Of a stretch of DNA of 64,000 nucleotides, positions 12,520 to 60,107 are shown piece by piece. Made by a program: the position numbers and the translations under genes. Location: assembly GCF_028641065.1 (NCBI RefSeq), contig NC_073413.1, forward strand, positions 11,160,001 to 11,224,000, read 5' to 3'. The first letter of the stretch is position 1; each line of letters begins with the position of its first letter. This stretch comes from Leucoraja erinacea (Eukaryota). The notes under the pieces were generated by a model that ran no database searches, was not told where the DNA came from, and saw only the letters and a list, made by a program, of their open reading frames with translations.

Positions 12520-12650
12520 CATGATGAGATGTGACATTGCCTCTCGAGCTTGTGTTGGGCGTCATTGGAACTGTGCAAGAGGCCAGAGACAGAGAAGTAA
12601 GTGTGGGAATGAGATGGAGCATTAAAGTGATGTTGGCAATGCTGTGACCT
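12520..12650 (-). mobile_element. Penelope-like GIY-YIG fragment
   Basis: HHFNAPSHSHTYFSVSGLLHSSNDAQHKLERQCHI. Confidence 0.55.
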
Positions 12651-13047
12651 CTGATCCAATAATCCGATCATCCTGTCATTGCTGACGTATCCATTAGTGT
12701 TGCCTCACCCAATAATATGTACTCATGACACATGTTGTTGTTTAACATGGGAAACATACTGGAATTGGTTTATACAGAGATACAACTTTATTTAAACATA
12801 TAAACATATCTGGATTCACAGGAAGAGAGCTCAGGGTAAATGGGTTTTCAAAAGTTAAACATTTTGGATGATTCCGATGATGAGGCAGGTCGATGCAATG
12901 AGTCTGTGGGACATGCTTCACTAGCTTCACTGTAATGGATGTGCCTCGGGAAACAGTGTCCGGATCACTTGGACAATGACACACTAACTGAAAGCACTGG
13001 GCCAAAGACTACGTGATGTACCTTCCCAACTTCCAGTGGCTCTTAGT

Positions 13048-13075
13048 CTGAAGAAGGGTCTCGACCTGAAACGTC
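13048..13075 (+). ncRNA. Minimal hammerhead ribozyme motif in a Penelope-like terminal repeat
   Basis: CTGAAGA-A-GGGTC-TC-GACCT-GAAA-CGTC: CUGANGA box, helix II, GAAA box and GUC cleavage triplet. Confidence 0.6.
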
Positions 13076-14440
13076 ATCTATTCCTTTTCTCCAACGATGC
13101 TGCCTTGACCCGCTGAGTTGCTCCAGAATTTTGTGATAATCTTCAGTGTAAACCAGCATCTGCAATTCCTTCGTACCCACTGATTTTCCATGTGTAGAAA
13201 GGAACTGTAGATGCTTTATTACACCATGTGTTTGATTAAAGGATTACATTTTCCAAAGATCACCCACTTTTTCGTGGTGTTTCAGACTTGTGGTTTAAGG
13301 GACAGAAACTTTCCCTCTTCTCACCCCTCCCATCCACGAATCCCCACTCCATCCAAGGCGACGTGGTTGAAGAGGTGAAGGTGAACTAGGATTAGGGTTC
13401 AGCCTGGGCTTGGCTTTAATGCACTCACAACTAAAGTGGAGGCCAAAAAACAGACAAACAGATTATTTGGATTTTCTACAGTCACCTCTGGTCCCTGCAA
13501 ATGTTTATTTTTTGTTTCCATGAGGTTTAGTTTGCTTTGCACATATTTATTAAGCCAAAGGATTATACAAAAGAGCATTAATTATCCAGATTTCACAGTA
13601 ACACAACGGCAGTGTTTCGGTCTCCTTCAGTGGAGACAACAGAGGTAAATGTGTAGCTTGCTCGTGTGTGCTGATGGCACAATAAAGGCAGACAATCGGT
13701 GATGAATATGGCTAGACAACGCAATTGAAAATGGCAGATGCACATTCTGCAAAATATACAGGCAGCGAATGTAGTGGGATTATTACAAAGGGTTGTGATC
13801 GCCCAGGAACAACGCAGACTTCCCCGGAGAGAAAATAATTTAAAAAGCAGACAGAATAGACGGATGTGGAGCTAATGTTTCAAAGCTCTCCCTCAATCTC
13901 CAACCCTGGAAGTGATTTCCACAGCCCAATTATCCGAGTCGTGCGTGCAGAATGGAAGAGCTTTCCACAGGAAGGTCGCTTAGTAAGATGACTGCTTTAC
14001 GGCACTGTAGAGGCAAAATGGCAAGGCCATGAGGAGTTGGTGTTTGAAGGAACGGGTGATTTGTTAACCTGGTGCTTGTGCATCAGGAGGCCAGACAAAG
14101 CTGACTTGTCAAGTGTGACTTTGGTACATTTTTCTTAGTCTCAGATGACAAGATAACTCAGAAACTTGATTAACAGTAACTCCAGGTCTTAACCACAGAA
14201 TGGAACTCAGAAAGATTTAATTAGGTCATAAACAGAATGTGATGATGATTATTCACAAGTTTAAATTAGTTAACAGTAGATCCAAATGTATGTTCCAATC
14301 ATGGGTGCACGCCTAATCGATGAAATTCCTGTTGGGTCTTCTCTGCAGTTTCCTGTCACCACATTAGCACAATCCACACCCCTGTTTACAAACTATTAGC
14401 CCTCAATATTTACCCTCTAACTATTTACCCTCAATGAATA

Positions 14441-15154: not shown

Positions 15155-15560
15155 GCTGGAGTAACTCAGCGGGTCAGGCAGCATCTGTGGAGAACATGGA
15201 TAGGTGACGTTTCACAGAGTGCTGGAGTAACTCAGCGGGTCAGGCAGCATCTGTGGAGAACATGGATAGGTGACGTTTCACAGAGTGCTGGAGTAACTCA
15301 GCGGGTCAGGCAGCATCTGTGGAGAACATGGATAGGTGACGTTTCACAGAGTGCTGGAGTAACTCAGCGGGTCAGGCAGCATCTGTGGAGAACATGGATA
15401 GGTGACGTTTCACAGAGTACTGGAGTAACTCAGCGGGTCAGGCAGCATCTGTGGAGAACATGGATAGGTGACGTTTCACAGAGTACTGGAGTAACTCAGC
15501 GGGACAGGCAGCATCTGTGGAGAACATGGATAGGTGATGTTTCGAGTCAGGACCCTCCTG
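15155..15560. repeat. Tandem array of six 66-bp units derived from the Penelope-like terminal repeat
   Basis: Near-identical units start at 15155, 15221, 15287, 15353, 15419 and 15485. Confidence 0.9.
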
Positions 15561-17824
15561 CCGACTTTGTGATGTGATCAATATACTGATTGCTGTGAGT
15601 TTTTGGATTTGGGCCCAGGGACAGTGGAGGAATGGCCATATATTTCCAGGTGTGTGTACCTGAGAGTGGAAGCTACTGTACCTGCAGAGGTGACACAACC
15701 TGGAGAATCCTGCACAGTTTAAGTCTCCTGGTTTACAAAGGGATGTGCAGGCAGTTGAGAGAAGATTCACAGAGATGATTCCTTGCATAACATGGTTATC
15801 TGATGAGTGTGATGTTTGACCGTGTTGGGCCGGAGCCCCGTGCAGTTTAGAGGAATGAGAGTTGGTCTAGGACTAGTACATGGGTGGGAAATGTGTAGAG
15901 AGATATGGACAAACGGGATTAGCTTGTACGAGGCATCTTGGTCAGCATGGACAGTTTGGCCAAAGGACCCGTTTCTGTGTTGTATGACTATCTTATTGAA
16001 ACATTTAAGATTCAGAGAGGGAACGAGAGAGGATGCTAAAGTTGTTTCTTCCAGGTGCTCCGGTTTCTTCCCACATCACAAAGATGTGCTTGTTGGTAGG
16101 TTAATCGGTCGCTGTAAGTCACCCTAGGTGTGTAGGTGAGTGATAGATACTTGGTGCACATTACAGTGGGTGGGGGACAGATGAAAGAGAGAGTTAGTGG
16201 GGGGATGGGATTGCTGTGTGAGCTGGCCAAAATGACCTTCTTTTACCTTGTATGAAAGCAGACAGCATTCCTCGGCACTCCTGACCTGTGCCTTGTAAAC
16301 TGTGGAACAGTTGTCAGGAGGTGAATCACTCTCTACATAACCCCCCGCGATAGCCCTGGCCTTGACGCACATGTTTATGTGGCTGATCCAGTTATTTCTG
16401 GTTAAGCTGGTTGATGGGGGAAAGAATTTCAATACTTCCAGTCACGGCAAAACACCAGGAAGCCTTCAAAGGTACAAATGTAGGACAGAGAAGGAGCAGG
16501 AGCCCCTGGAAAGTGAAAAGACTGACGATTGGACAAAAAAAGACACAAAGTGCAGGAGTAACTAAGGACCCTTCTTCAGATTGATTGCGTTGGGTGTTTG
16601 GGTCGGTGGGGCAGAGGGGGGGGAGGTGCTTATAGAAACATAGAAACATAGAAATTAGGTGCAGGAGTAGGCCATTCGGCCCTTCGAGCCTGCACCGCCA
16701 TTCATTATGATCATGGCTGATCATCCAACTCAGTATCCCGTACCTGCCTTCTCTCCATACCCCCTGATCCCCTTAGCCACAAGGGCCACATCTAACTCCC
16801 TCTTAAATATAGCTCTTAAATATTATGGTCTAGATAGATGAATGGTCTTTCCTCCTGCCCGTAGAATCATATGGACAGAGGCTGTTCGGCCCATTGTGCC
16901 TGTGATAGCCCTTCAAAGACCTCTCATAGAAACATAGAAACATACAAAATAGGTGCAGGAGTAGGCCATTCGGCCCTTCGAGCTTGCACCGCCATTCAAT
17001 ATGATTATGGCTGATCATCCAACTCAGTATCCTGTACCTGCCTTCTCTCCATACCCCCTGATCCCTCTCCAAGTAGTTGTGGTTTCAATACTGTATTTCC
17101 CTGGAATGATTTCCTTCCCTTATTGATGGAATGACCTTTAAATGTCACTATGAATCTGCTTCCCTTGTCTATTCAGACAAGCACTGTGGATTACAAAAGG
17201 TTGCTGCATAAAAAAGGAATGTCCTTGCCTTCATGCCTGACCTCTGCATGTTAACGCTTGTCTGTGTTATCTGAGGATGTCACATATTAGTAGGAACAGT
17301 TCCTCTCAGCCATTCATAATTTAAAAGAATTCTGTAAAATAAAGTAATGCTGAATGGAAATGGGGGATTCAGCCCACTGAGTCCATGCCAATCATCGATC
17401 ACTCATTCACAATAATCCTACACAAACCCTGTTTTATTTTCCACACACCCCTCTCCACTCTCCCCAGATTCTGCCACTAAACACACTAGGGGCAGTTCAC
17501 AATGGCTGATCAACCTACCAAATGTAGACGTGGAAGGAAACTGGAATGTCCTAAGGAAATTTGCTGGGGTAAAGTGCAGACTCCACCCAGACAGCACCAG
17601 AAGTCAGGATTGAACCTGGGACCCTGGTGCTGAAAGGCAGCAGTTCTACCAGCAGCAACACCATGCTGCCCAAAATCTGGACTATCACTACTGTGAAGAG
17701 AATGATCCTCAGCTGTGACCCCCATTACTGACAACACTCTTGTGGACCTCTTCATGGTGGAGGAAGTGTCAAAGATGTTCTCAAAGTGTCCTTGGGAAGA
17801 ATGTAAGATCCTCAGCAAATGCAT

Positions 17825-23415: not shown

Positions 23416-26249
23416 GAGATCTTCGGCTTCCGTCCCACATTCCCACTGTAAGACATGGCTGCCAGAGGAAGTACAGAAGTACAGGGCCTCGGACAGAAAT
23501 GTGTTCTGACCCGCAAATGGGAGTTACTGGTCAGCATGTACCTGGGCAGAATGGCCTTTTCGTGTGTATGTCTGTCTGCAATGAGGACAGCATCTCCGGT
23601 TAGGTCAGCCTCGACCAGAAATTCATTCTGACGCTGAGTCCAGAGACATGAGAACTGAGCAGAACATGAAAGGAGATGAGATGAGACTGGAATGGAATTC
23701 AGTAAATCCCTCGGGAAGTGACTCATCCGTGGTGGCACTAGCCTGACCAGCCTCTGTCTCCCAAGAACAGTTTGTGTGTCAGTCTCAAGCATGTTTGTGC
23801 GTCTTGACAAGGCCAGATGGAATTAATGGCCAGCAACCTGCCAAGACGTCTCTCCCAACAAGACCATTAATGAAGAGGCCTCTCTTCTCCAAGGGAAGGA
23901 AATAAATAAGACATTTATTTGTCTGAAGTATTAACATTGGCCTCTCGAAAACAAATCTGTGAAAGATATGCACTGACCTCCTGAAATATTTTCCTGCCGT
24001 AAAGAAAAACATGAAACAAGCTAAAGAACACTAAAAACATACATGACATACTAAAAAAGCAACAAAGAAGAAAGGGACAGACAGACTGTTGGCGAGGCAG
24101 CCATTGCTGGTGCCACCTGGTATTTCTATTTAAGCTGAGAGAGGTAAGTTTTAAAGGAGATGTGCAGGGCAAGTTTTGTACACAGAGGGTGGTGAGTACC
24201 TGTAATGCACTGCTAGGGGGCGGTGGTGGAGGCAGATACCATAGTGGCATTTAAGAGGCTCTTAGATAGGCACATGGCTATGCAGGGAATGGAGGGATAT
24301 GGATCACGTGCAGGTGGAGGAGATTAGTTTCATGGCATCAAGTTTGGCATGGACATTGTGGGCTGGAGGGCCTGTTCTTGTGCTGTAGCGTTCCCTGTTC
24401 CCTCTTAATATTGTTCCTTAATACTGCCCTGTGCCAAGTTCTCACAGTGGAAACGGTGGACAAGGTGATGATGGGGCTGTGGATAGTGCATCCTGGTTTC
24501 CCATCTACTGAACGAGTTCATGCCAACCTTCCGATGGGTGAAAATTCCCCACATTCATCAGCCTAAATTACAGGACATGGCAATTCGGAGAATCGTGGGG
24601 GAAACTTAAATAATTAGTTGGAAAGAGACATCTCTTGTCTCTGTGGGGTCCACATTCTTAAGTGAATGAATCAACATGGAAAATACCTTGAAACTCGAAA
24701 GAATCGTCAGGGATTATTCTCAATATCCGGTCAGAGAGGAAATCAAAGGCATTTCGAAAAGAATTCAACTAACTAAAAATATCTTCAGGAATGCTATGAA
24801 TATTGATGCCAAGCAGCAGGAGTGTGTAACTTGTTAGTGAGGGGGGAGGGCAGCGTTGCAGAAACTCCTGCTGCCCCTGGTCCTCTCTCACCCATCTCCT
24901 GTCCCAGTGATACACCGAACCACACTGCTACCAGGGTTGGGAGAACAAGGGTCAGGGTGGAGGGGTCATCACCTTTGCACTACCCACGGTCAACGAAAGC
25001 TCTGCCCATCAGATGGGGCAGTTGCTGATACTGACACAGGACAAGGCCATTCAGCCAACTAGCCCATACTAACCCCCAAGACAGTAAATCCCTCACATAG
25101 TGTGAATGCACAAAGACTTTTTCCCCAGGGTGAGGGAATCAAGAACTAGAGGGCAGAGATTTAAGGAGGGAGGAGAAAGATTTAATAAGAACCTGAGCGG
25201 TAACCTTTTCACAAACCGATACTGACACACTGCCCCGTTCTTGAGACCACCTATAAACATTGACAATCATTCATTCAATCCCTGGGAAGCCCTGCTGATA
25301 CTGACACTCTCCCAGCCCCAGACTACCTTCGTGGGAATGCAAGCCAACTAGAGGGCCTTAGATGCTATAATTGTGCTCTGTGAGGTCACAGAGTACCTCA
25401 GCTTTATCATTCAGAACCTGAGCGGAAACCTTTTCACTCCGATACGACACACTGCCCCGTAGATAGATGATACCACCTATAAACAGAAATCTTGACATTG
25501 CATCATTCATCCCTGGGAAGCCCTGCTGATACTGACACTCTCCCAGCCCCAGAATCTACTACCTCCGTGGAACTGCTCTGCCATCTTGTGGCCTTACCTG
25601 CTATTACAATTGTGCTCTGTGCTGCCCTCTCGTCACAGCACCCTGGTACCTCAGCTTTATCATTCATTGTGGCTCAGAATAGAAAGCGCTTGTGGAACTC
25701 AGTGGGTCAGGCAGCAGCTGTGGAGGGCATGGATAGGAACTGGTGGGACAGCATAAGATATCCTATTTGGATAGCTTACAACCTAATGGTATGAACATTG
25801 GAGATACAATGAACTGCAGATGTGTAAGAAAGAACTGCAGATGCTGGATAAAATCGAAGGTAGACACAAAATCCTGGAGTACAAAAAAAGCACACAAACG
25901 GATCATGCGGCATCTCTGGAGAACGTGGATAGGTGACATTTCAGCTTGGGACCCCTCTTGACAACTTCCACAGGTGTACTTATAAAGCTTATATTGACTA
26001 GTTGTATTGTGGCCTGGTTTGGCAACTCGAACGCCCAGGAATGAAAATTATAAAATGCAGTGGACATAGCCTAGTCCATCATGGGTACTCACCTCCCCAC
26101 CATCGAAGGGATCTACATCGGGAAGAAGGTCCAGGAGCCTGACAGCTGTGATCTCCAGGTTCAAGAACAGCTTCTTCCCAACAACCACCAGGCTTTTGAA
26201 CGCTGCACAACACTAACCTCAGACTCTGTGGAACCTCTCCGCTTATGGC

Positions 26250-26841: not shown

Positions 26842-28599
26842 CCTATGGCATTACCGACAATTACAATTGTGAATATAGACACAAAATGCTGGAGCAACTC
26901 AACGGGACAGCCAGTATCTCTGGAGAGAAGGAATGGGTGATGTTTCGGGTCAAGACCCTGTCCCACTGAGTTTCTCCAGCGTTTTGTATCTACGGTTTAA
27001 ACCAGCACCTGCAGTTCCTTCTTACAAATTATAATTGTGCTCCGTGTTGCCCTGCTGTGATAGCACCCTGGTATGGCAGCTTTATCATTCATATGGTCAC
27101 AAGTGATAGGAGCAGATAGACCATTCGGCCCATCAAGTCTATTCCCCCATTCAATCATGGCTGATCTATTTCTCCCTCCTAACCCCATTCTCCTGCCTTC
27201 GCCCCATAACCTCTGACACCAGTTCATTGTGGCACAGAACAGAAAGTGCTGGGGGAACTCAGCGGGTCAGGCAGCATCTGTAGAGGGAATAGATAGGAAC
27301 TGGTGGAACAGCATAGCATATTCTACTTGGATAGCTTACGACATTGGAGACACAAGGATCTACAGATGCTGGTTTACACAAACAGACAAAGTGCTGGAGT
27401 AACTCAGTGGGACAGGCAGCATCTCTGGGGGAGGAAATGGATAGGTTACGTTTTGGGTCAGGATCTGAAGGAGGGTCCCAATACATCACCTATTCATTTT
27501 CTCCAGAAATGCTGCCTGACCCGCAAAGCTACTCCATCATTTTGTGTGTTTCTTTGGTATAAACCAGCATCTGCAGTTCCTCCTTATTACACAGCATCTC
27601 TGGAGAACATGCTTAGTTGGGTTGGGACCCTTCTTCAGGCTGCACTCCTGTCTGATTTCACCTATTCACAAGGTCTCTTTGACACTGACTGCATCTCCAC
27701 TGACGTTAATGCAGCTTCCTCACTGAGCCCTGTGCCCCAGGACCCTGTGTAACTGACTGTATTGTCACTGACTGGTATGTGTCACTGACTATATCCCCGC
27801 TGCAGTTAATCTGGTGACCCTCTCCCCTGCGCCCTGTGTCACTTCTTATTATTATCGAGTCCACACACGGGGTGGAAGATTACAACCTTCACGTGGTCCA
27901 CAAACAAGATTAGAAGTTGTTCAGCCAGAGTTGAACACGCCACAAGATTAGAGTTCTAATGTGAGAATGAAACAGGAGAGAGATAGGGAGAGAACACACT
28001 TCTCGGCATCTGCATGCAATGGTGTCTGTCTTGTGTGTGGCGGTGGGAAGATTGGTGAAAACAGGGCCGCGATCGACGTGAATGCTCTTTCCTTGACCCC
28101 CGTGTCACTGACTGTCTCCCCGCTGACGTTAACCCAGCTCACACACACACACACACTGCCACCCGTAGAAGGCCTGCTCTGTAATTGGTCTCAGCCTGGC
28201 TGTGAGAGCTGCTGTTCGTGTTACTCGTGGCCACGGAGAGGCCTGCCTGTTCCCAGTCAGCGTAGAGCTGTGATAACATCCCTGGAGGCTTGTGTCAGCT
28301 GCGGCCCTAGGTCTGTAGGCGTTGTGTGATGATCCACTGCCTGTGTAATTGGCAGACACCAGCAGTTAATTAGTAACAAATGATGCAGAGGGCTCCCTCC
28401 TTCAGGCACAGATTTGCGAGCGCATTCCTCCGTGTGACGGAGAGAGAGAGAGAGAGAGAGAGAGAGCGATTACGGGAGAGGGAGGATTTTCAGGAATGTT
28501 GGATGCTGAGGGGAGACCTGATAGTTTATAAATTGATGAGAGACATAGATAGGGTGGGCAGTCTTTTCCCCAGAGTAGAAATACTGTATCAAAGAGGTC

Positions 28600-29405: not shown

Positions 29406-30089
29406 TGTGGAACGAAATGTAGAAACAGCAAAAGGAAGAGTGTAACAGAGAGACAAATAGATAAAGGGGAAGATACCAATACAAAAGAATTAAATGAAAT
29501 CATACATTCATTGGGCAGTGTCTATCATTCTCTGTCATCTGCTTCATTCCTGGACTCACGTTACCAAACTAGGTTGCGTCGGTGTGCTCCCTACCATACA
29601 TGTGTGGAGGTTCGGTAGAGTATTCTGCGGAGGAGAGGCTAGGCTTGGGCTATGACTGTGCCAAGAACTGATGAATAATTGACCTCCTCACTGATCCTGT
29701 GTAATATTCAGCAGTGTGTTTATTGTTGATGGCTGCTCATGGAGTACTGCTCTGTGTTCTTGGACCAGGACCAACTCCAAGGGCAGATGGAAGACCATCG
29801 GAATAAACACAATGGGCTGGAAAGGGCTGTGGGAGCTGATCCATTGGGGAATTGAAAATAATTCTGTTGGGAAAGCCATGGGAAAAGGCAACAAGCATGG
29901 AGTTAATTAGTTGGCTCAATCAAAGGGCTAGCATAAACATTACAGACCGAATGGCCTGCTCCTACGTTGTATGACGGAGGGAAAGTGAAGGGACTTTGGG
30001 CTTTTACTGTGAATTATATCCTGTCATTACCTGTGTTGAGCTGAGGAGATGCTGAGCATTTGGATAGTTCCACACAGGTCAAAGCCCCT

Positions 30090-30495
30090 CGATAGACACA
30101 AAATGCAGGACTAACTCAGTGGGTCCAGGCAGCATCTCTGGAGAAAAAGAATGGGTGACGTTTCAGGTCGAGACCCTTCTTCAGACTAAGAGTCATGGGA
30201 AAGGGAAAGAAGAGATATAGATGGTGATGTAGAGAGATATAGAACAAAAAATATGCAACAAAAAAAATCAAGGAAAGGTGGAGCCCACACTGGTCCATTG
30301 TTGGCTGTGGATAGGTGTTAACGAGTTAGACAGATGATGAAACTCAACAGGATAACAGTGAAGCTAGTACGCTGTCTAGGGTGGGATAGAGATGGAGATA
30401 GAAGGAATGCAAAGGTTACTAGAAGCTAGAGAAATCACTACTCATACCGCTGGGCTGTAAGCTGCCCACGCGAAATATGAGGAGCAGTTTGAGTT
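30090..30495 (-). mobile_element. Penelope-like 3' end: ORF terminus, pyrimidine-rich UTR and hammerhead-bearing terminal repeat
   Basis: LLIFRVGSLQPSGMSSDFSSF*, followed ~235 nt later by the hammerhead core and the CTCCAGAGATGCTGCC..GAGTTA tail. Confidence 0.7.
30157..30184 (-). ncRNA. Minimal hammerhead ribozyme motif, downstream of a GIY-YIG ORF end
   Basis: Minus strand reads CTGAAGAAGGGTCTCGACCTGAAACGTC. Confidence 0.6.
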
Positions 30496-30799
30496 TGTTC
30501 TTGATCTGAAAGTCCTTCCCTTGTTTTAATTCCGATGCGTCGAAAGCCACAAGTGCCTTTGACAACCAGATAAAATACTTCATGATCAATAAGGCTCTGC
30601 ACATCCACAGCTGGAGCTGCAGGACTTGAAAGAAGAGCTGAAGGTGAATGAGTCATCATTGCTGCCTATACCTGGGATATCTTGTTCCACAATCCGTCCA
30701 TGAGTCATCCATTCTCTCATCTTTGTATTCAGCAGCTGAGATTTTTACTTCTTGCGCGAGGGGTGTCAGTGGTGCGAATGTAATGTTGCTGACGTCTTC

Positions 30800-31190: not shown

Positions 31191-31640
31191 GCTCTGGTCC
31201 TGGCTGAACCAGCCGCGCTCTGGGTGAGGCACAATACAGTGGCCAGGAACTGTGCTCACATTTCATTGCTCATTTCTCACCTGTCAGTTCCCCTTGGCGT
31301 GCGGTGGGACCATCTGTCACTATCTGAATATCTGTCACTGCCTCGCCTCCCCCACAGCACAGCCGACACAGGCTCACACTCCCTCCTCCGCACAGAGACT
31401 CAAGAAGCACGCTCACCCACACTGCATATCATTCTGCCCTTCAACTCCATGCCAGCTCCCAGTGCCAATCCCCTCAATCCCAACGCCATCTCCTCCAGGT
31501 ACGTCAGAGGCTGAGGGGAGACTTTGATTGAGATGCATAAAACATCGTAGATATATGGTGGACAATCAGAAGCTTTTTAGACACAAAAAGATGGAGTAAC
31601 TCTGTGGGTCAGGCAGCATCTCTGGAGAAAAGGAATAGGT

Positions 31641-31668
31641 GACATTTCGGGTCGTGACCCTTCGTCAG
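31641..31668 (-). ncRNA. Minimal hammerhead ribozyme motif
   Basis: Minus strand reads CTGACGAAGGGTCACGACCCGAAATGTC; variation at N7 and in the loop, core intact. Confidence 0.55.
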
Positions 31669-31814
31669 ACTCAGGCTGACCCCAGGCTTATGCCCTCCAG
31701 TTGATCACACTACCATCCTGGGAATGTAGTTCTCTTTCTGTGTCTCTCATCATTTTATATACTCCTTCTAGGTCACCACTCATCCTCCAGCGTTCTCCAG
31801 AAAACAATCTGTTT

Positions 31815-32786: not shown

Positions 32787-32918
32787 TATTTAAACCCGGT
32801 TGTCACAAAAGCTTCTTACGTCACAAAGGACCAACTTTTCATTGATGTTCTGAGCCCCAAAGGCATGGAACTCGCTGTCAGGCTGCAATATTGTGAGGTC
32901 GTGACTATTTATTTACAG
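32787..32918 (+). promoter_or_regulatory. Candidate promoter or 5'UTR elements of the C1orf94-like gene
   Basis: TATTTAAA at 32787-32794, CRE-like TTACGTCA at 32816-32823, possible splice acceptor tatttacag ending at 32918. Motif matches only. Confidence 0.3.
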
Positions 32919-32985
32919 TTTTACACTGTTGCTCAGTAACAGTAAGATCGCCAATCGGTCTAACCGAGACACTCCCTCTGGGACC

Positions 32986-35035
32986 ATGCTGGCAAAGCTG
33001 GAACTGGTCCACACCCAGAGAGACACCAAGTGCTCCTTCCCTCTGGGTCCATACCCGCGCTATACCTGGATCCACAAGGACACGCCGGAGGATGGGCTGG
33101 ACAAGGCTTGCTACGAGATCTGGAAGCGGGTGCAGCAACTCTCAGCCCAGCTGGACTGCAGCTCCAAGGAGGTGACGGGCTCCGAGCCAGGCCAGGCCGA
33201 GGATGCGGGCGATACAGTGCGGGGCAAGGCGGGCAAGAGGGTGGCGGACAGCTGTGGCAAGGATGACGTCTCCCTGCTGGTGCAGTTGGAGTATCTGAGC
33301 ATCGTGGCGGAGAACAGTGGGGGCGTGGACCTCCAGCAAAACCGTCTGGAAGGGAACGACCAAATGGTGTCCATCCTGGAGACCAAGACGAAGGAGCTGC
33401 AGGACTCTGAAGCAGAATCTCTGGATAAGACCAACTTCTTGAATAATTTCCTGAAGTCCGGCAGTGGGACGGAGCTGAGCAAAGACAGCCTGGCCAAGGA
33501 AGAGGTGGCAGAGGAGAAGCAGGTGAGGTGTGGCTCAAAGGAGGATCTGGAAGTGGGCAGCAGAGTCTCGGTGGCATCCAACAAGGAGATCTGCCAGTTA
33601 CTGGCCCAGTTCTCCCTCAAGCACATCCACGAGTCAGAGGCCCCGGACAACAAGGTGGTGATGGAGGAGGCCCAGATCATCAAAGACTTCCTACAGAACA
33701 GCATGTTCAGCTCTGCCGGGGACAAGAGGGCCCAAGTGTCGCCGCCGCTGCCCCTGGCCTCGCGGGAGCCGCAGGACGAGCAGGCCCGGCGCCAGCTCCC
33801 CGTCTTTGCCAAGCTGTGCGAGGAGCCACCGGCCTGTGAGGACGAGGGCCACAGTGAGCCGCTGGCTCTGACCTCGGGCCCAGGCCTGGCTTCGGGCCTA
33901 GCCCAGGATAGGCCGTCATCGGGCAGCGAGCTGGTACGCCTGCTTTGCGGGGCGCCGAGGGAGGTTTACCGCAAGGAGGCCGAGGGCCGCGACTCGCCAG
34001 AGGCCTCGTCCCCGGATGCCAGGCCCAGCCGCTCGGAGCACAGCTACAGCACCAGCCGCCACTCGCTGAAGGGCCTGGCGCCATCAGCACGCAGGGCCGG
34101 GCCCAAGGATGTGACCAGACCCCGGGAGCTGGCTGGGCCCCAGCACCTGCTGGCCAGGCGAGGTGACGGAGGCAAAGACCTGGCCCCTGAAGCAGCCGCA
34201 GCAGAGGGAGATGCCGGGAGTACAGTGGAGGCCGAGGCTTCGGGGAGCGGCGGCCACTTGGGCCCTGAGTTCCCAGACATGGAGCGGCACCCGGTGGGTC
34301 CTGGGCCTCACAAACACCGGGCCGGCCGTGAGATGGAGGCCGATGCCTCGGTCCTAGTGGGCTCCAACCCTCCCCCTCCCCCTCCCTCCTCCCCCTCCTC
34401 CCCCTCCGCTACCCGACGCTGGCTCCAAGTACAGCAGCAGCGGCTTGTACCCCACCCGCTACCCAGCCCTGCCCGGCCGGCCGGCCCTCATCAACTACCC
34501 AGCTGCTCCGCCAGCCCCCGCTCCCCCCACAGCCACCGCCACTGCCTCACCAGCTACCGGCTACGGGCAGCAGCCCCCCTTCTACCCGGGCCGCGGCCTG
34601 CGCTTGCCGCTGCAGCAGCCTGCCTACCCGCAGGCCGCAGGCTGCTTCCTGCGCTCAGCTGGCCCGGGGCCCGGTCCCGGGGCCTACACCTACGGCCAGG
34701 TGGCACAAGAGTTTGTGCCGCGCCACGCCTACATCCGAGCTGCCTACGCCCCGCTGCTGGGCTACTGGTCCTTCGTGCCCGAGTACCCCTACAGTGCCCG
34801 CGGCAATGCCACCTCCGCTAAGCCCCTGGCCTCTGCCGCCGCTGCTGCCGCTGCCAACAACCCCCCGCCCATGGCCGGCGACGGCCCGCAGTGCCTCTTC
34901 CAGCCCGCCTACGGCTACCTCGACACCAACCTGACCGCCACACGCTTCGGCTCGGCCCGCTCCGGCCCCCTCTACAGCGGCAGCAACTTCCAGGTGTACT
35001 ACCCCGCCGACAGCAGCGGCTACAACTGCTGGTAG
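32986..35035 (+). CDS. c1orf94-like: C1orf94-like protein, apparently intronless CDS (~682 aa after correcting a 1-nt frameshift near 34384-34386)
   Basis: ATG in a GGACCATGC context. Motifs match human C1orf94 as I recall it, in order: LGPYPRYTWIHKDTPEDGLDKACYEIWKRVQ, GKDDVSLLVQLEYLS, QLLAQFSLK..PDNKVV..KDFLQNSMFS, RRQLPVFAKLC. In the +1 frame (ORF 34445-35035): RAAYAPLLGYWSFVPEYPY and PPPMAGDGPQCLFQPAYGY. GC-rich coding-like composition. Confidence 0.85.
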
Positions 35036-37460: not shown

Positions 37461-39212
37461 ATTGGGACAATATTGAATACTTTCGTAACGTTGTTGGCGT
37501 CGTAAACATGGCGACTCTTTGCACACTTGTGTATTGTGTGCAGAACACAGAATTGCCCTGTACCGAATACGTGTGCAATAAGTTATCAATCAAGCCAATC
37601 AATCATCCTACAGAAAGGGAACCTGCACGTCTTGGGAGTGTGGCAGATCAAATTTTAGGAGAACCAAAGATCTCAGAGAAAACCCACACAGGTCACGGGG
37701 AGAACGTACAAACTCCTTACACCGAATGTAGCGCCAGTCCCGGGTTCGCCAGTCCCGGGTTCGACTACTACGGGTGCTGTCTGTACGGAGTCTGCACGTT
37801 CTCCCCGTGACCTACGTGGGTTTTCTCTGATAACTTCAGTTTCCTCCCACACTCCAAAGATGTACAGGTGTGTAGGTTAATTGGCTTGGTATAAATGTAA
37901 ATTATCCCTTAGTGGGTGCAGGGTCATGTTAATGTGCGGGGATCACTGAGCGGCACGGACACGATGGGCCGAAGGGTCTGTTTGTTTCCCCCCTGTATCC
38001 CTCAACTGAATTTTTTTTAAACGCAACATTTTGTGTCTATCTTCAGCGACTTGCTGCTGTCATGGGACAGATGGTCTCTGCGTGCCCTGTGTATTATCCT
38101 GCCTTCTCTGACAAGGACACGCGCCAAGCCTGGCCTTGCAAAGCTGCAAGGAGTTGGAGGAGGGGCAGCGAGGAGGAGGGGGGGTAACACTGACGTACGA
38201 CACGGGGACTCAGCTGTTCCTGCCTGCCCTTGATGGCTAATGAACATTCAGCCCTGTTGTAACAGAAGGGCAGCTTCTGCGGAATTTACATCACCAGGAA
38301 TTTTAAATGACCGGCTGATTGATGTATGAGTTCGCCATCCTAATTAAGACCAGTTATTTTAGTGAATCAAGGACTGGTTTTCTTGTTTTTTTAACTAACC
38401 AATATCTCCCAAGTGATTACAAACACGGAAACAGGCCCTTTCGCCCAATTAGTCCATGTCAACCTGCACTCCCCATTAGCTTACATTTGGCTTGTATCCC
38501 CCCCTCTAAACCTTTCCTTTCTATGTTCCTGTACAAATGTATTTTAAATGTCGTTATAGTCCCCGTCTCAACCACTTCCTCTGGCAGCTCGTTCCATACA
38601 CCCACCACTCTCTGGGTGAAAAAGTTTCCACTCGGGTAATCGCAATAATGCAATTTAGTTTTTGTAACATTGTCGGTGCCAGAAACGTGCGACTCTTTGT
38701 GTACTGCCCAGGTGAGGTCTGCTGTGTGATTTTACCAGATTGTGTACAAGAATAAGGAATTTCACTGTACCAAGGTACTCACGGCATTAAATGATCACTG
38801 AATCATTGAAACTCTGAAGTTTCCATCTATTAGAACTTTGCATCAGGAGTCATAGTGATACAGCGTGGAAACAGGCCCTTCGGCCCAACCTGCTCACACC
38901 AACCAACATGCCCCAGTTACACTAGTCCCACCTGCCGGCGTGAGGTCCATATCCATCCAAACCTGTCCTATTCATGCACCTGTCCAACTGTTTCGTAACA
39001 TTATGATAGTCCCAGCCTCAACTACCTCCTCCAGCAACTTGTTCCATACATCCACCACCCTTTGTGTGAAAAGGTTATCCCTCAGATTCCTATTAACCCT
39101 TTCCCCCTTCACCTTAAAACCTCTGTCCTCTGGTCCTTGATTCCCCCTACTCTGGACAAGAGACTGTGGGCGTCTCTACCTGATCTATTTCCGATGAAAA
39201 GTATGAGCCTAA

Positions 39213-39543
39213 TGAGCCTGTCCCACTTGCGCGACTTTTTCGGTGACTGCCGGCACCCGTCATAGGACGTTACAGGTTGCCGAAAATTCTCAACATGTTG
39301 AAAATCCAGCGGCAACCAGAACAAGGTTTGACTCTTTGGGCGACCACTCACGACCATACAGGCTTCACCCTGCGACATGTCGCCAGGGTGTCGCCTGTAC
39401 GGTCGTGAGTCGTCTCCTCAGTCGCCCAAAGAGTCGTAGCGTCTTTCTGGTCGCCGCTGGATTTTTAACATGTTGAAAATTTATGGCGACCTATGACGGG
39501 TGCCGGCAGTCGCCGAAACAGTCGCGTAAGTGGGACAGGCCCT
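39213..39543. mobile_element. MITE, PIF/Harbinger-like (related copy at ~56028-56258)
   Basis: TIRs GCCTGTCCCACTT...AAGTGGGACAGGC; palindromy extends through most of the element; TAA flanks both ends. Confidence 0.8.
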
Positions 39544-41756
39544 TAATGCAAGGAAGTTCCAGGCAGCTCTGTTCAGTGATAACAAACAAACGTGGAGAAA
39601 GATGCAAAAGGGGAACGGGTCCCAGGGGTGAGGAGTTTTTGTGAGAAGAATGAATTCTGAGAGAGAATTAGTCCCATACGATCTCTATTTCTTGGAGAAA
39701 AATCACCTAATTTTTTTCAAAATCCCACTAAAAACTGCAAAAAGAATGAAGCATTTTCTGCACTGGATTCATCTTTGGGCGTAGGTCAAATAACTCTCGC
39801 CTACTTTCTCTTAAATAACTTCCAAGTCAAAGAACACGTGTGTAACTAAAATCCTTATCTTGCACTAAATGCTATTCCCGTTATTCCCTTATCATGTATC
39901 TGTACGCTGTGAATAGCTTGATTGTAATCATGTATTGATTTTCCGCTGACTGGTTAGCATGCAACAAAAGCTTTTCACTGCACCTCGGTACACGTGACAT
40001 TAAACTCAACTCAACTAAACATTTATTTCACACCCCCTTGGGTATTTTCCCTGCCCAGAACAGCAGATTGGATATTTTACCTAAATTGACAGAGATATCA
40101 CAATTCCGGAGAAATGGTCAGAAATCTAATGACACCCCGCTCTCGTCACATGAAAAATGCATCAACACAGACTCGGCCTTATCCATTATTTACGCGGTTA
40201 GCAGGCGGTCTGTTGCATTTCCACATAGTGGGTCCCCCACCATTCCTGTTCCCCACCTCCACACATCTCATCTCCATCCACTCCCCACTCCTTCCCCTCC
40301 CCCCATCTCCACACCCCACCCAACATATTACCCTCCCCCTCCCCCTCCCCCACCCCACCTCCACTCCCCTCCCCCCCCCCCCACTCCGCACACCCCCTAT
40401 CCCTTCCCCACCCCCATCACCTGCCCACCCACATATCCCCTGAGCCAGAGGATTAGAGGATTTGGTCTCCATAACTCTGCCGATGACATCTGTTCTATTG
40501 CACGCCGTCCTGGCGTTTTGAGCTCCTGGACTTTCTACGTTTTCTTTCCTTCCTGCTGCCATTTGTTGTAAGCGATCCATATTGAAGATGGTAAATCTGC
40601 CCGGCTTATACTCTTATAGAGAAAAAGATCATGAAAAATCAGATCAGAGCCAGCCTGTGGTATTCAGGGAAGTTTAAGAGGCATTTGTCACTCCCAGAGT
40701 TAGTCTGACAGAAGATGCAGGGGAGACAGTGAGGAGATGGTGAGGAGAGGGTGGGGGCATTATGAAATTATTATCCACCTCCCACCTATTTTCCTTTCCC
40801 TCTTTCTATATATTCGTTCCATTTTTAACATTTGCTTATCAATTGCTATTAATTTCTATGCAGGTATGTATAATGTGTTCATCAATCTACCCAGTAATCT
40901 GTCTTATCTATCAGTCTATCTGTGAATGAGTCCAGCTCCCTCATTGCCCCCTGTCTCCCAGCACCCTGTGTCACTGACTGTGCCCCTGCTGGTGTTAATC
41001 CAGCTCCCTGGTGAATGATGGCAGCTGTTAACCAGTCTTTTATTTGCTGAGAAATTGGGCAGAATTTGAGCGTTGAGCTCCTGGAAGCTGACACCGCAGT
41101 GTGGGGGGGGGGGGGGGGGGTTTACAAAGGCAGAAGTGATGCCCTGCCACACACGAGCTACGCCTGGGACCCGATCAATAAATCATATGGATATAGGCTG
41201 CTCGACGACATCAATTGTGGATGTAATCGTAGGCTGGATAGACCTCTTGGGAGCTGAGGCGGCCTCAACCTTGCTCCTCCACCAGAGCTGAACAAAGAGC
41301 AGCTCATCAAAATTTATTGCGCGCATCGACTACAGGGCTTGTAATACGTGAAAATGACATTAAAATGTCTTCTCCCAGGGCAGACTGATTGAATTATTTA
41401 TTTGTCAGTGCGCTCCTAAATCTGTTTGTAAGCAGCATTCCGGTGTTCCCTGCCTCTTTCCTTCACACTTGCCCTGCCCACACTCTCACCTACCCTGAGA
41501 GAGGGCAAGACTGTAGGTGGGCTCCAGTGGATAGTAGCTGAGCAGCCAAAGCAAGGAGCCAGGATTCATTCACAATGTGGGTGTTGTGGTCAAAGGAATG
41601 TACTGGGCAGTTTCTTTTATTTTTTAAAAGAGGGTTTACTTCATTGTAAATACTTTAATCAAATGTGAATTCTCTCAGTCCTTGCTGATCTCTCTGCATC
41701 GAGTCCTAACAGACCAAAGCCCCCTCCGTAGAAGGTCAAAAAATAAAGACACCTAG

Positions 41757-43000: not shown

Positions 43001-45034
43001 CCATTTTTTCCAAGATTGGGGAATAACAATAAGATTCTGCATTCAGGGTTTGTGAAGGAGATAGACACTGGTGGAGTGGGAGCATAGTTATACAAGGGGG
43101 GGGCTTCACATCAGATCCACGTCCGGTCGGGAAGGGGATTGGGATGGGGCTGGAGTCCAGTATCTGTGCGGAGCAAGAGGACAGAAAAAGGCCGTTTGGC
43201 CTCTCATGACGGTACTATCAGTCAGTGCCATCATTCCTGGTCTACTTTTCTATGTATCTGCCTCAATTTCATGGCCTTTAAAACACTTACCAAATAAAAA
43301 TGGTTGGCGTGCACCTCGCTCTTGCCTAGTTGATGTTCCCTGTCGATGTTGAGGGCAAGGGCAGATGATCCTTTTCCGTCGAAGAGTAATATTGGTCACT
43401 CCGACACTTCACTCCCACCGTCACTCTCTGCTCCCAGTCTGTGTGTCCTCTCCCCCCCACCACCAAGTGTTGGCTGCTGCACAAGTGGGTCTCGGATTCA
43501 TCCATCACCGTGCAACCTGGGTCTTTAGGCTTGAGAACGGTTGGGAAATTACCCCCGGCCCCCACACTCTGTGAAACATTTCTCTCAACCAGAGTCACAT
43601 TATAAACCTCCCCCCCCCCCCCACACCCCCAAGTCACCACTCTCTGCGCAACTTCTAAGCACTTTCCTCAAACCCCACTCCCTGAGTCACATCTTGGCCT
43701 CCACTGCCACAGAGGGCAGTGGAAGTCAAGACACTGGATGGATTTAAGAGAGAGTTAGATAGAGCTTTAGGGGCTAGTGGAGTCAAGGGGTATGGGGAGA
43801 AGGCAGGCACGGGTTATTGATAGGGGCCGATCAGCCATGATCACAATGAATGGCGGTGCTGGCTCAAAGGGCCGAATGGCCTCCTCCTGCACCCATTTTC
43901 TATGTTTCTATCTAAACTCTTCCCCCAGTTACCACTCCCCGAGTCACATCTAAACTCTTCTCTCAAACCCACTCCCTGAGTCACATCTAACCACCCCCCT
44001 CATTTACCACTCCCTGAGCAACATGTAAACACATCCCTCAGCTCTCACACCATGAACAACTTCTGCAGCCGTCCCTCACTGTGTCCCTCATTATATGGGG
44101 GTCTGAGGTTGAGGTTTACAGTTGGGAATGACTGGGTTCCATCAATATCACCTGGGCCACCAGACTGAATGTTGTCAGTTGATACAGCATTAAAACATGA
44201 ACACACTTTGGACCAACTCCTCGTGCTATAAAACATCGGGGTTTATAGTTGAAAGTCTCTTTATCTGGTCAATATGAGAATGGCTAAGTTTAGTGAAGTG
44301 ATGAATTAATGGGATCACTAACCATTGACCTGTTTGACCTGATGGTTTGAGGTCCACTGGACCTGGAGATGAAGGGATTGGTGGTTGGGGGTTTACTGCA
44401 CCAAATAATTGGGACATGTTGGCAGGCCGTTGGCCTGGAGGTTGGCACCTTCTTGGACCAGGTGTTTGGCGGTTGCTGGATCCAGATGTTGGCGTTGCTA
44501 TGGTTTTGGTTGGAGGTTTGGTAATTGGGTGCTAATTTACCACAGCCAATTAACCCGCATTAGTAGGTTTACAGGTCATATGGCCAAGGGACGGGGGGGG
44601 GGGGGGGGGGTCACGGAGAATGTGCAAACTCCACACAGTAGGTCAGGATTAAACTTGGAATTATTGGAGACGTGGAACTACGCCACAGTGGAGGTACCCA
44701 TACCAGGTACCTGACTTTGACCCCCAACGACACTAAACTTTTGCAGAGTCCCTGGAAGATTTGGACAATACTTCTCTGGTGAATGCAGGAACAAACTGCA
44801 GATGCTGGTTTACACCAAAGATAGACAGCAAATGCTGGAGTAACTCAGCAGGTCAGGTAGCATCTCTGGAGAAAAGGAATATGCAATGTTTCGGGTCGTA
44901 ACCCTTCTTTAGACCTTTTTTTAGCGACTGAACATCCATAGTAAAGAAGAGGGAACGGGGGCCTGGAAAGCGAAGGTTATTAATGGGGCGAAGGGCACAA
45001 GGGATCTCGGACCGAGCTGGGAAGGGATTGGGCA

Positions 45035-45170
45035 AGCGAGGGATAGGATGGAATCGTGGCATGTGGAAATTATTTCCAGTGGGGTTGGAGCAGGCAGAAA
45101 CAATGGGTCTGTCTGTCTGCCAGGGCAGTTCTGCTTATGGGTTTTGGGGAGAAGGCAAGGGCGGGACTGG
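45035..45170 (-). mobile_element. Penelope-like reverse transcriptase N-terminal fragment
   Basis: LLPKTHKQNCPGR..., compared with the PLE motif YLLPKIHK..PGRPIVS..PTE.IS..D.IL; frameshifted. Confidence 0.6.
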
Positions 45171-46114
45171 AGGCTGTGGAGGGCAAATAATTCTGAAGTG
45201 TCCATCTCTGATCATCTTGGGCAGCCCATGGACCCTGTAACAGCAGTCTGCTGCTCCCTTTATTTCAGCTGGTCCTCACCTCTAGACTGTGTTCACACTG
45301 GCGGTGTCTCGGTAGGTCACTCATGTCATATTAAACTGACTCATTGCAACCACGAGCATACAAGATGGAACCCATCCTTGAGTGATGGTTCCATCATGTG
45401 GCCATGACCTGTGATCTACTCACTTGGTTCAGTAGGTCCAATCATGGACATTGGGTCAACTACTCATTTATGAAGCCATACAATGACTGTGTGTGGGAAG
45501 GAACTGCAGATGCTGGTTTAAACTGAAGATGGACACAAAATGCTGGAGTAACTCAGCTGGTGCAGGCAGCATCTCTGGAATGGGTGACGTTTCAAAGGTC
45601 TGAAGAAGGGTCTTGACCACACCACAGTTATAACTTGATCTTCACTCAACAAACGGTGTCACACATCGTTGGAGTAACTCAGCGGGTCAGGCAGCATCTT
45701 TGGAGGGAGGTCCACAGAGGGCGATGTGGGTCGGGACCCTCCTTCAGACACCGCTCTGCCTCAACCAGCTAACAAAAGTGATGAATCTCTGGCCCCAAGA
45801 CCAAGAGAGGGGATAGCATGAACGAGAGGGGCCAAGGAGGGGGATGGCTTGGTATCCAGGCCACAAGTTGAACGAGGGGTGGGGGAGGGTTCACTCACAC
45901 TTCTCCCAGAACAAGGACCTTTACACAAACACACACTCACACACACCTTGCTTCAGAGGGAGAAATAGTCCGTTAAACACTTGGTTACTTATGTACAGAA
46001 TATTCTACACGTCTTCTCCACTAAAACGGTTCGCTGCTGGAGTTTTGAGCAAAGCACAAAGTACTGGAAGAACTCAGTGGGTCAGGCAGCATCTGTGGAA
46101 GGTAAAGGACAGTC

Positions 46115-46142
46115 GACGTTTCGGGTCAAGACCCTTCTTCAG
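46115..46142 (-). ncRNA. Minimal hammerhead ribozyme motif, sense to slc17a7 and ~550 nt past its stop codon
   Basis: Minus strand reads CTGAAGAAGGGTCTTGACCCGAAACGTC; intact core with a 5-bp helix II. Confidence 0.6.
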
Positions 46143-46620
46143 ACTGATGGAGGGAGGGGGAGAACCTTTTCAAAGTAGGTGTGCTTTCAGGAGATTCCGC
46201 AGTGGAGCGGGAAAATCAGTCTGAAGAAGGTTATTTGATTAGTACGGATGTTAGGGGAGAAACCTGGGCACCCGGAGAAAACCCACACGGGTCACGGGGA
46301 GAATGTACAAACTCCGTACAGACTGCACCCGTAGTCAGGATCGAACCCGGGTCTCTGGCGCTGTGAGGCAGAGAAGGCAGGAGAATGGGGTTGAGAGGGA
46401 GAGTGATTGAATGGCAGAGTGGACTTGATGGGCCGAATGGCCTAATTCTGCTCCCAGAAGGATCCCGGCCCAAAACTTCGTCTGTCCATCCCGTCGACAT
46501 CCACAGATGTCGCTTGACCTGCTGAGTTCCTCCGGCACTTTGTGCTTTGCTCAGGATTCCAGCGCCTGCAGTTCCCCGTGCGGGGGAGCGGTGGTAGGCC
46601 GTGGTTTAGTGGCGGTGTGT

Positions 46621-46688: not shown

Positions 46689-47021
46689 TCAGGGCAGGTC
46701 CCGGTCCTCAGCACTGCCGTACATGTACACATCCTTGCCCTCTTCCTGCACCAGCTGCTCCTTCTTGTCCCAGTCACTGGCCCAGCCCCCGTTGGTGACC
46801 TGAGTGGTGTTGGTGGCACCGTAGCTGCCGTAGCCCTGTCCGCCCGCCTCCGTCTCCTCCGCCAGCTCATCCTCGTGGATGAAACCGCACTTCTCCTCGC
46901 TCTGATCCTCCGGCTCGGCCCACGGCTGCTTCTCGCCCGACGCAAACAGCCCGTAAAAGATGACACCGGCATAGTGAACCAGCGAGGCGATGAGGAAGAC
47001 GTACTGCCACTCCTCCCGTGT
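46689..47021 (-). CDS. slc17a7: VGLUT1 exon 12, coding part ending in TGA
   Basis: [56 protein letters not shown]...GYGSYGAT...[34 protein letters not shown]. The tail resembles non-mammalian VGLUT1 more than VGLUT2 or VGLUT3 (from memory). Exons 2-12 total 1660 nt and splice in frame to 552 aa plus stop. Confidence 0.88.
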
Positions 47022-47139
47022 CTGACACCCGTTCCGTCCCGTCCGAGGAGGGGAGTGATGTGGGGTAGGGGAGGGCATGGCAAAGGGGGCAGAAACAACA
47101 GCAACAGCAGTGAGAGAGGCTAACAGGTTGTGTGATTGT

Positions 47140-47715
47140 TGTATACACACAGACACAGACACAGACACTCTCCAGTCACACACACACACTCAGACACATG
47201 CACACTCACATACATGCAGGCACTCTCACACATACACTCACTCACATACACAGACATGCACGCACTCTCACACAGACACACACACACACACACACAGCAG
47301 TGCTGAACTATTCATTGGTGACCCTCAGACTATCCTTGATTGGACTTTGCTGGCTTTACATTGCACTAAATGTTATTCCCTTATCATGTATCTGTACACT
47401 GTAAATGGCTCGATTGTAATCATGTGTTGTCTTTCTGCTGACTGGTTAGCATTCAACAAAAGCTTTTCACTGTACCTCGGTACACGTGACAATAAACTAG
47501 ACCGAACCAAACACTAACATACACATGCACACGCACACACACGGTTGAACATGCACACTCATGCATACTCATACTCATGCACATACACACACACACTGTT
47601 GAACATGCACACTCACGCACGCACAGAGTTGAACATGCACACTCAGACATACACACTCATGCACACACACACGCACACACACACACTCAGTCACACACAC
47701 ATTCACCCTCACACA
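47140..47715. repeat. Degenerate (CA)n tracts flanking a Rex1 3'UTR fragment
   Basis: CA-rich at 47140-47295 and 47515-47715. Confidence 0.85.
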
Positions 47716-47881: not shown

Positions 47882-48049
47882 CTGGAGAGTAAACAACAGA
47901 CAGGAGGCAGAGAAGCGGCAAGCGGATTAAACCTCAGTCGTGCTTCTGTCTGTTCGATCGCCAACAAATTACACATGCTAATGTATGGTAATATATGATA
48001 ACGCAGTCACGTTTATGCTAATAGCTGATTCAGGCCATCTACATTTTTG

Positions 48050-49544: not shown

Positions 49545-49775
49545 GTTACCTAAAAATTGCCAAATTCAATGTGTACACCTTTGGGTTGTGAGCTACCCAA
49601 GTGGAATAAGAGGTGCTGTTCCTCTAGCTTGCGTGTGGCCTCACTCTGGCAATGGAGGAGGCCCAGGACAGAATGGACAGTGTGGGAATGGGAAGGGAGG
49701 GGAGGGAATGGAATGATTAGTGATTGGGAGATCCAACAGGCCTTGGTGGACCGAGCGTGGGTGTTGGGTGAAGCG
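49545..49775 (-). mobile_element. Penelope-like GIY-YIG C-terminal fragment
   Basis: [48 protein letters not shown]. Confidence 0.7.
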
Positions 49776-60075: not shown

Positions 60076-60107
60076 TGCGGTGCGGTGCGGTGCAGTGCAT
60101 CTCTCAC

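Follow-up and report, generated by a model that had tools for sequence, protein, structure and literature searches.

A densely scattered hammerhead-bearing repeat of Leucoraja erinacea, very probably the terminal part of a Penelope-like element family

It has been established since 2014 that Penelope-like elements (PLEs) carry minimal hammerhead ribozymes (min-HHRs) and that these are scattered as solo copies. In the accessible text of Cervera and de la Pena (2014, PMC4209133), the min-HHRs of metazoan PLE pseudo-LTRs (pLTRs) show a type I layout with no real helix III, a palindromic 15.2-16.2, an extra base before helix II and a G10.1-C11.1 pair, and are mostly found as solo copies, probably truncated PLEs, with some close opposite-strand pairs. 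All of this is shared by a repeat dispersed over 64,000 nucleotides of Leucoraja erinacea DNA (contig NC_073413.1, positions 11,160,001 to 11,224,000; this whole stretch is hereafter the window, and positions are counted from its first letter). The helices of the window's repeat are short: helix I has 1-2 bp in the intact copies, which agrees only with the 2 bp of the D. virilis variant and not with the 4-5 bp of schistosomes, and helix II has 4 bp, compared with 6-8 bp in the min-HHRs of that report. The repeat is also dense, with ~0.9 copies per kb within the window, compared with 4,000-9,000 descriptor-counted motifs per genome given there for coelacanth and Xenopus. These pLTR fragments stand out by their very high density and unusually short helix I.

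Likenesses are also found with better characterized elements. In the Poseidon PLE PAc of Anolis carolinensis, according to the accessible text of Frangieh et al. (2024, PMC11167929), two reverse transcription start sites bound an optional tail, both strands are cut and extended, and the main template is uncleaved RNA, with RNA-seq ends absent from the cut site; the window family appears to be alike in each respect. Neptune-clade PLEs, as presented in the part of Craig et al. (2021, PMC8557442) at hand, have in common with it a C-terminal GIY-YIG endonuclease, a Cys-rich linker (here in related shark proteins), 5' truncation, inverted truncated copies and a 30-40-bp tail at one end; the tail of 30-40 bp is described as optional at PLE ends (PMC8557442, PMC11167929), and the role of PLE hammerheads is called unclear in PMC8557442. 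Metazoan non-LTR retrozymes (PMC7229834; preprint 10.64898/2026.07.22.740005, both in their accessible parts) likewise carry a type I hammerhead, are mostly non-coding and are related to pLTRs. They are defined there as tandem repeats with complete hammerheads, whereas in the window intact hammerheads do not form tandem arrays, helix I is not canonical and units do not end at the cut site. Finally, the Penelope element of D. virilis is reported, in the accessible text of PMC2377424, to have an internal promoter and an intron that begins 46 bp past the start site.

The abundance of the repeat was measured in several ways. A core pattern of 28 nt matched the window 14 times at up to three mismatches, against 0 in 100 shuffles; pattern scans of metagenome and viral contigs gave 0 matches. 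An nhmmer model, iterated for three rounds from a seed of nine copies, detected 59 copies covering 5,212 bases (8.1% of the window) and 0 in the reversed window, in agreement with the dozens of copies announced in an earlier note on this DNA. That note also called it the most abundant short repeat. By self-BLAST copy depth it is (peak of 47, compared with 17 for the next family), but an iterated model of the window's other repeats gave 62 hits (8,917 bases), apparently SINE and LINE-tail pieces merged into a composite, so that the statement is true per single family only. Several sequence subfamilies of the repeat are present. A DNA sequencing run (X1), in which 83% of the words from a 7-kb stretch are present, placed 112,857 contigs on 30040-30540; its word depth is ~25 million over the motif against 24-27 on unique flanks, which is not a copy number and says only that the repeat family is enormous. 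The massive amplification proposed earlier is supported.

At positions 4-31 of the model, the repeat reads CUGAAGA and a single extra A, then a 4-bp helix II with a loop of four bases, then GAAA, CG and UC, and the predicted cut lies directly after position 31. In the copy at 30155-30187 (-), a 2-bp helix I is followed by CUGAAGA, the extra A, the 4-bp helix II with its tetraloop, GAAA and an ACGU palindrome, and cleavage is predicted between 30157 and 30156 (-); the conserved downstream part of this copy, to its short 3' end, occupies 30086-30154 (-). On sequence grounds, this layout fits the minimal type I hammerhead of PMC4209133, as far as it is described in the accessible text, and the assignment made in the earlier note, including the ACGU palindrome, was borne out, with CUGANGA, GAAA and UH in type I order in the majority sequence. 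All four features of PLE min-HHRs that are visible at the level of a single copy or family, as given in that part of PMC4209133, were found: many subfamilies; an extra base between 9 and 10.1 (30 of 32 copies have A at model position 11); G10.1-C11.1 at the base of helix II (10.1-11.1 is G-C or G-U in 25/27 copies); and a palindromic 15.2-16.2 (CG in the majority at model positions 28-29).

Seven cores had been named as intact, and all seven match the core pattern (54078 being our 54077), but only four, at 13048, 30157, 31641 and 46115, pass a strict test; they are the strictly intact cores among the 28 copies that span the core without gaps. One helix III pair is broken at 36555, a T-T mismatch lies within helix II at 42126, and helix II pairs only 2 of 5 at 54077. 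Besides the 30187 copy, the intact cores belong to a long-tailed copy at 13045-13180 (+), a copy at 31575-31671 (-) that has a U-G in helix III and begins at the 5' edge without UTR, and a copy of another subfamily at 46035-46145 (-), in which helix I has 1 pair only. The earlier caveat on a very short helix I was justified, since the four intact copies have 2, 2, 2 and 1 contiguous pairs and the range over all copies is 0-3.

Conservation was counted as cells that match the majority in 54 aligned copies, five array units having been dropped, and these cells are not independent because the subfamilies are related. Non-CpG core positions match in 274/293 cells (93.5%), compared with 419/589 (71%) in the adjacent linker at 32-44 and 38/68 in loop 2. 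Preferential conservation of the core thus holds against loop 2 and the linker, but not against the downstream block at 45-62 (779/841, 92.6%), and the tail block matches in 199/214 cells. This pattern suggests that the subfamily masters kept the core while loop and linker varied, the downstream blocks being kept equally well. Once inserted, copies lose core bases without protection, notably at CpGs; the catalytic G12, which sits in a CpG, is retained in 24/39 and decays like neutral DNA.

The motif could alternatively be a conserved protein-binding or promoter sequence that never cleaves, its likeness to a hammerhead being a relic or a coincidence; we regard this as a real, if lesser, possibility. 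Helix I has 0-3 pairs with 66% of its cells paired (87.9% in helix II), and the covariation score in helices I and II was not above shuffles (179 of 500 as high), so that the window yields no independent structural proof of a hammerhead. An Rfam search gave no hammerhead match at E up to 1, only seven microRNA-family matches, all under their gathering scores; this miss was to be expected for minimal hammerheads without helix III and is not counter-evidence. RNAalifold on 18 copies retained only 3 pairs of helix II, single-copy folds had no extra stability over shuffles (z -1.7 to +0.9), and, in the predicted monomer fold of the 30187 copy, an alternative pairing of the purine-rich core with the pyrimidine-rich linker (-11.6 kcal/mol) would hide the hammerhead (-2.0 kcal/mol). 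The motif is predicted to be incapable of cleavage as a monomer, and any activity would require a dimer or the PLE protein. However, the core bases, the extra A, the G10.1-C11.1 pair and the palindrome are kept across subfamilies in which loop 2 and the linker vary, and the Anolis PLE hammerhead, in the accessible text of PMC11167929, cleaves only with protein present, so that a poor naked fold does not exclude activity.

The origin of the repeat from a PLE is supported by endonuclease and reverse transcriptase (RT) fragments that have matches among the PLE proteins of sharks and rays, the reversed controls being clean, in line with the earlier proposal. The best-preserved endonuclease C-terminal fragment lies at 49553-49775 (-); its part 49553-49696 served as the protein query and returned 49 relatives, and the closest named relatives of the retroelement fragments are from Hypanus, Mobula, Rhincodon, Stegostoma and Chiloscyllium (rays and sharks). 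A tblastn search with six of the relatives placed endonuclease pieces at 799-1017, 12537-12632, 25737-25799, 30443-30481, 48635-48691, 49553-49775 and 57882-57980, the best control match having an E of 0.38. The piece at 799-1017 (+) is adjoined by an inverted repeat piece (1013-1036, minus strand), and that at 57882-57980 (-) is a fragment of the GIY-YIG core (E 8e-4). The Pfam GIY-YIG model matched the protein relatives at E 0.001-0.008, weaker than the curated cut-off, and gave none on the short window pieces. Four database proteins (P0005, P0028, P0053 and P0055) are predicted host proteins in which PLE endonuclease or RT pieces are joined to unrelated domains, and are likely to be gene-prediction artefacts or exonised PLE pieces.

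At two loci, as had been claimed, the motif sits just downstream of a GIY-YIG C-terminus. At the first, a degraded C-terminus with its stop codon (30419-30500, -) is followed by a pyrimidine-rich 3' UTR or pseudo-LTR (30188-30418, -; last 30 nt 87% pyrimidine) that runs to the hammerhead, with 231 nt from stop to motif. Taken alone, the tblastn piece at 30443-30481 is weak (13 aa, E 0.14-0.88), but besides its translation it is backed by a blastn match to the 48.3-kb copy (E 6e-8), with a co-linear order of stop codon, UTR and motif, and by repeat-level depth in X1. The second unit, at 48048-48402 (-), has a core with one mismatch (CUGCAGA) and 220 nt from stop to motif, its stretch 48150-48369 being co-linear with the UTR of the first. 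Its endonuclease C-terminus is split into 48370-48402 and 48635-48691 (-), the latter being the upstream half (tblastn E 4e-4).

An RT fragment, previously placed at 45035-45170, is real and longer than claimed. It extends over 44922-45196 (-) in two frames, up to the motif with the first catalytic Asp, with tblastn E-values of 5.6e-6 (P0096, a bamboo-shark protein) and 2e-5 (P0151) and none in the reversed control; both proteins were reached from an endonuclease-bearing match, and a protein search with the frameshifted piece itself gave no matches. Since the fragment abuts the 5' edge of a long-tailed repeat copy (44794-44914, -), with the remaining ORF and the UTR missing between them, it does not represent a co-linear remnant, and its fusion to the repeat out of normal order may reflect a separate or internally deleted insertion. 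There is no full-length element, with a single ORF between two pLTRs, within the 64-kb window, so the link of the solo copies to an autonomous partner is drawn from fragments. As for the clade, a Cys-rich linker between RT and endonuclease is present in the relatives P0057, P0060 and P0062 and, in degraded form only, in the window (57882-58103). This linker is a feature of Neptune and Nematis in the accessible part of PMC8557442, and the part of the preprint 10.64898/2026.07.22.740005 at hand reports only Neptune and Poseidon outside coral. On these sequence features, a Neptune-type PLE is the likely source of the repeat, whereas PAc (PMC11167929) is a Poseidon element.

The arrangement of the copies was then compared with that of PLE insertions. 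Among 31 neighbour pairs within 400 bp, 12 were head-to-head, 12 tandem (5 of them inside an array) and 7 tail-to-tail. Direct repeats of 13-15 bp, with one mismatch, were found at the outer ends of 4/12 head-to-head pairs, against 1/132 mismatched controls, and a target duplication was seen in 1/27 of the copies tested singly. The split of the second endonuclease end is due to such a pair (48390-48646 with its duplication; arms 48396-48471 on the minus and 48531-48632 on the plus strand), which landed in the endonuclease end of another copy and is flanked by a 13-bp duplication of that target (1 mismatch); its 3' end is short in one arm and long in the other. The 3' ends fall into two groups, 25/52 at model positions 92-111 and 19/52 at the model end (118-120), and the latter copies run on for ~10-15 bases further. 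In their inverted pairs, target duplications and two tail lengths, the repeat copies behave as 5'-truncated PLE insertions.

Inverted pairs of the repeat form long hairpins and could be a source of dsRNA or a target of editing. They also matter for annotation, since the repeat makes up 8% of the window, as inverted pairs, and one of them, at 48426-48579 (+), produced a sub-threshold match to the Rfam microRNA-precursor family MIR2118 (E 8e-6). At 62793-62953, a near-perfect palindrome of another subfamily (67-nt arms, 96%, no spacer) is flanked by a 15-bp duplication; it is centred on the helix III palindrome of the hammerhead, through which the two arms seem to have joined. Two near-identical composites, at 25675-25799 and 27234-27345, join an endonuclease C-terminal piece to an inverted repeat piece that begins just past the predicted cut site; they may stem from a local duplication or form a small family of composites.

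Several other features share the window. Long open frames at 32905-35032 (+) match Pfam DUF4688 in two different frames (E 4e-22 and 4e-9) and mark a host gene with an intron or frameshift near 34.4 kb. Open frames at 46692-47189 (-) and 59775-60060 (-), with no Pfam match, are presumably exons of a vesicular glutamate transporter of the SLC17A6/7 type; if they are real, many of the repeat copies would be intronic. A 241-aa open frame at 9889-10611 (+), which we take to resemble the 3' end of a CR1-type LINE ORF2, is followed at 10690 by the microsatellite tail TTTCTATG. Tandem arrays unrelated to the repeat occur at 50527-50982 (period 8, 56 copies), 59328-60076 (period 28, 27 copies) and 54569-54837 (period 16, 17 copies), and nested inverted repeats at 39207-39549 (arms of 63, 54 and 34 nt) look like a miniature inverted-repeat element.

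The 5' ends of the copies were found to pile up at the edge of the ribozyme, which in the first locus corresponds to position 30187 (-). Among 54 independent hits (five duplicates, namely four array units and 27299, were dropped), 32 start at model positions 1-8, of which 8 run into the pyrimidine-rich UTR and 24 do not, and 21 start at positions 9-60, mostly as arms of inverted pairs; a hit starting at 71 is in neither class, and 13045 was classed as UTR-less although it keeps ~12 nt of UTR. The share of UTR-less copies that begin at positions 1-8 (24/45) departs from a uniform distribution over 1-60 (p 2e-10). No significant pile-up was observed at the cut site, with 5 of the 21 later starts at 28-33 (p 0.09). 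In agreement with this, 6,011 contigs of X1 break off at 30184-30187 (819, 920, 1,465 and 2,807) and lead into mixed flanks (agreement 0.31-0.33, median length 99-176), while no loose ends at the cut site are among the rows listed; 1,328 further rows lie beyond them and may hide a smaller pile-up there. Over the hammerhead the word depth is ~25 million, and in the UTR it is down to 0.8 million; this drop is exaggerated, since the 80% likeness needed for recruitment leaves out other UTR subfamilies, whose UTRs also account for some of the loose ends at 30187. The accessible text of PMC11167929 holds no mention of such a pile-up for PAc.

Since most cDNAs cross the predicted cut site, their templates were probably uncut, as was found in vitro in the accessible part of PMC11167929, and the insertion templates are likely not to have been cleaved by the ribozyme. 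Copies across the site would equally result if cleaved RNA had been re-ligated or if a template jump had occurred. It is highly probable, in our view, that the repeat is the hammerhead-bearing end (pseudo-LTR and tail) of a PLE family, scattered by the element's own enzymes from uncut RNA. Judging from the two loci, the element would carry, in order, the endonuclease stop, ~225 nt of pyrimidine-rich UTR, the hammerhead motif and 70-105 nt downstream. By analogy with the Anolis PLE, its protein would nick one or both strands, and reverse transcription would be primed at two internal RNA sites 3' of the hammerhead; cDNAs that, like most copies, read past the predicted cut and terminate at the 5' edge of the ribozyme would come from an uncleaved template. 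The copies, losing core bases after insertion, would be inert.

What sets the template's 5' end is less certain. A weak initiator-like pattern with A at position 1 was found in 7/9 UTR-bearing copies (background 1% per base), and an AG acceptor after the pyrimidine tract likewise in 7/9; two of the nine, and a fragment at 16580, have AA in place of AG and keep the initiator-like pattern. Since the AA copies still fit this pattern, and neither a fixed upstream exon nor, among the best 15 of 154 joints in X1, a splice joint is seen, a start site is favoured over a splice acceptor, and we tentatively take the pile-up at positions 1-4 as the transcription start site, a reading to which we give somewhat less than an even chance. 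The fuller proposal, that the PLE mRNA starts at the initiator at the hammerhead's 5' edge and that priming 100-135 nt downstream yields a SINE-like insertion, repeated about a million-fold, is possible yet well short of probable. Priming near the mRNA 5' end would then leave a copy of 100-135 bp, whereas priming in the downstream repeat would leave UTR- or ORF-bearing copies.

The solo copies themselves might instead be the masters of a SINE-like, non-autonomous sub-family, transcribed from the ribozyme's 5' edge and outnumbering the ORF-bearing copies. This would be consistent with the excess of solo over UTR-bearing copies among the early starts (24 vs 8), with the several subfamilies in the window and with the non-autonomous PLE derivatives of Chlamydomonas described in the accessible text of PMC8557442. 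We find it doubtful, however, as the same subfamily sequences are also attached to UTR and endonuclease (30187 and 48149), and a solo copy would be without the upstream pLTR, which is the site of the Penelope promoter in the accessible text of PMC2377424.

An unlikely source of the pile-up is a 3' splice site, with spliced RNAs, bearing a short exon of their own or host exons, as templates. The AG that follows the pyrimidine tract in most UTR-bearing copies would suit it, and so would the intron of D. virilis Penelope, which ends at the 5' end of helix I in the accessible part of PMC4209133. Against it, besides the AA copies and the 16580 fragment with their initiator-like pattern, no constant upstream exon emerges from the flanks, given their low agreement, and no splice-type joint is found at the pile-up position among the best 15 of 154 joints in X1. 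Moreover, the loose-end share at 30185-30186 in poly(A) RNA (558 and 811 vs 2,363) is no larger than that in DNA (920 and 1,465 vs 2,807), a comparison in which species and data types differ.

It is very improbable that this is a retrozyme-like family (the label used in the earlier note), in which tandem hammerhead repeats self-cleave and the circularised unit RNAs are re-inserted by PLE machinery: joints back to position 1 after 38, 62 and 102 nt, in 13, 19 and 1 contigs (among the best 15 of 154 joints in X1), show that rare head-to-tail units exist, and the accessible part of the preprint 10.64898/2026.07.22.740005 finds tandem retrozymes in its one chondrichthyan genome and derives retrozymes from pLTRs, but the tandem joints listed are a few dozen among 112,857 contigs, the copies lie dispersed or in inverted orientation, no intact copy has more than 2 bp of helix I compared with a canonical 6 bp, the unit boundaries are off the cut site, and the sole tandem array of the repeat in the window (15155-15565, -; 66-bp period, 5.9 copies, 99% matches) has, within 15155-15543, five of six units that begin at GAAA without the CUGANGA half and a sixth that is degenerate. 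For the window, a retrozyme identity is therefore largely refuted, there being no two consecutive units with a complete hammerhead, no long helix I and no Rfam match.

RNA reads on the motif region were taken from a poly(A) run of a relative (11,331 reads) and from two single-cell runs labelled as the X1 species (42,723 and 43,774); among the indexed runs, apart from two guesses of small share, no RNA run containing the stretch was listed. Nearly all of the reads were less than 95% alike and ran over into dissimilar sequence, and their distribution mirrors the DNA profile, as would be the case for copies that lie within host transcripts. In the three runs, whose fragmented or 3'-type libraries are poor tests of cleavage, neither read starts nor read ends peak at the cut site. 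Single-cell reads antisense to the hammerhead were in 7:1 excess, with poly(A) loose ends at 30248-30251; this was attributed to oligo-dT priming inside an A-rich tract and not taken as evidence of expression.

Among openly available papers searched by title and abstract, the only instance of the motif in cartilaginous fish was the single chondrichthyan genome of the preprint, whose supplements may list more, and no report of a 5' pile-up at the hammerhead edge was found. Shark, skate or ray terms were absent from two of the three supplementary files of PMC4209133, of which file 1 may list some.

What the window adds to the known scatter of PLE hammerheads is a genomic signature that can be counted, namely that insertions stop at the 5' edge of the ribozyme and not at its cut site. 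If it holds genome-wide and across clades, this signature would extend the in vitro result on the Anolis element, an uncleaved template, to the germ line, and would provide a direct test of where PLE transcripts start. If the pile-up does mark the start of the PLE mRNA, the genome would hold a fossil record of a ribozyme that stays uncut in the templates of transposition in vivo, restrained by an alternative fold that pairs its core with the linker, and this would explain how solo minimal hammerheads come to swamp full-length PLEs in animal genomes.
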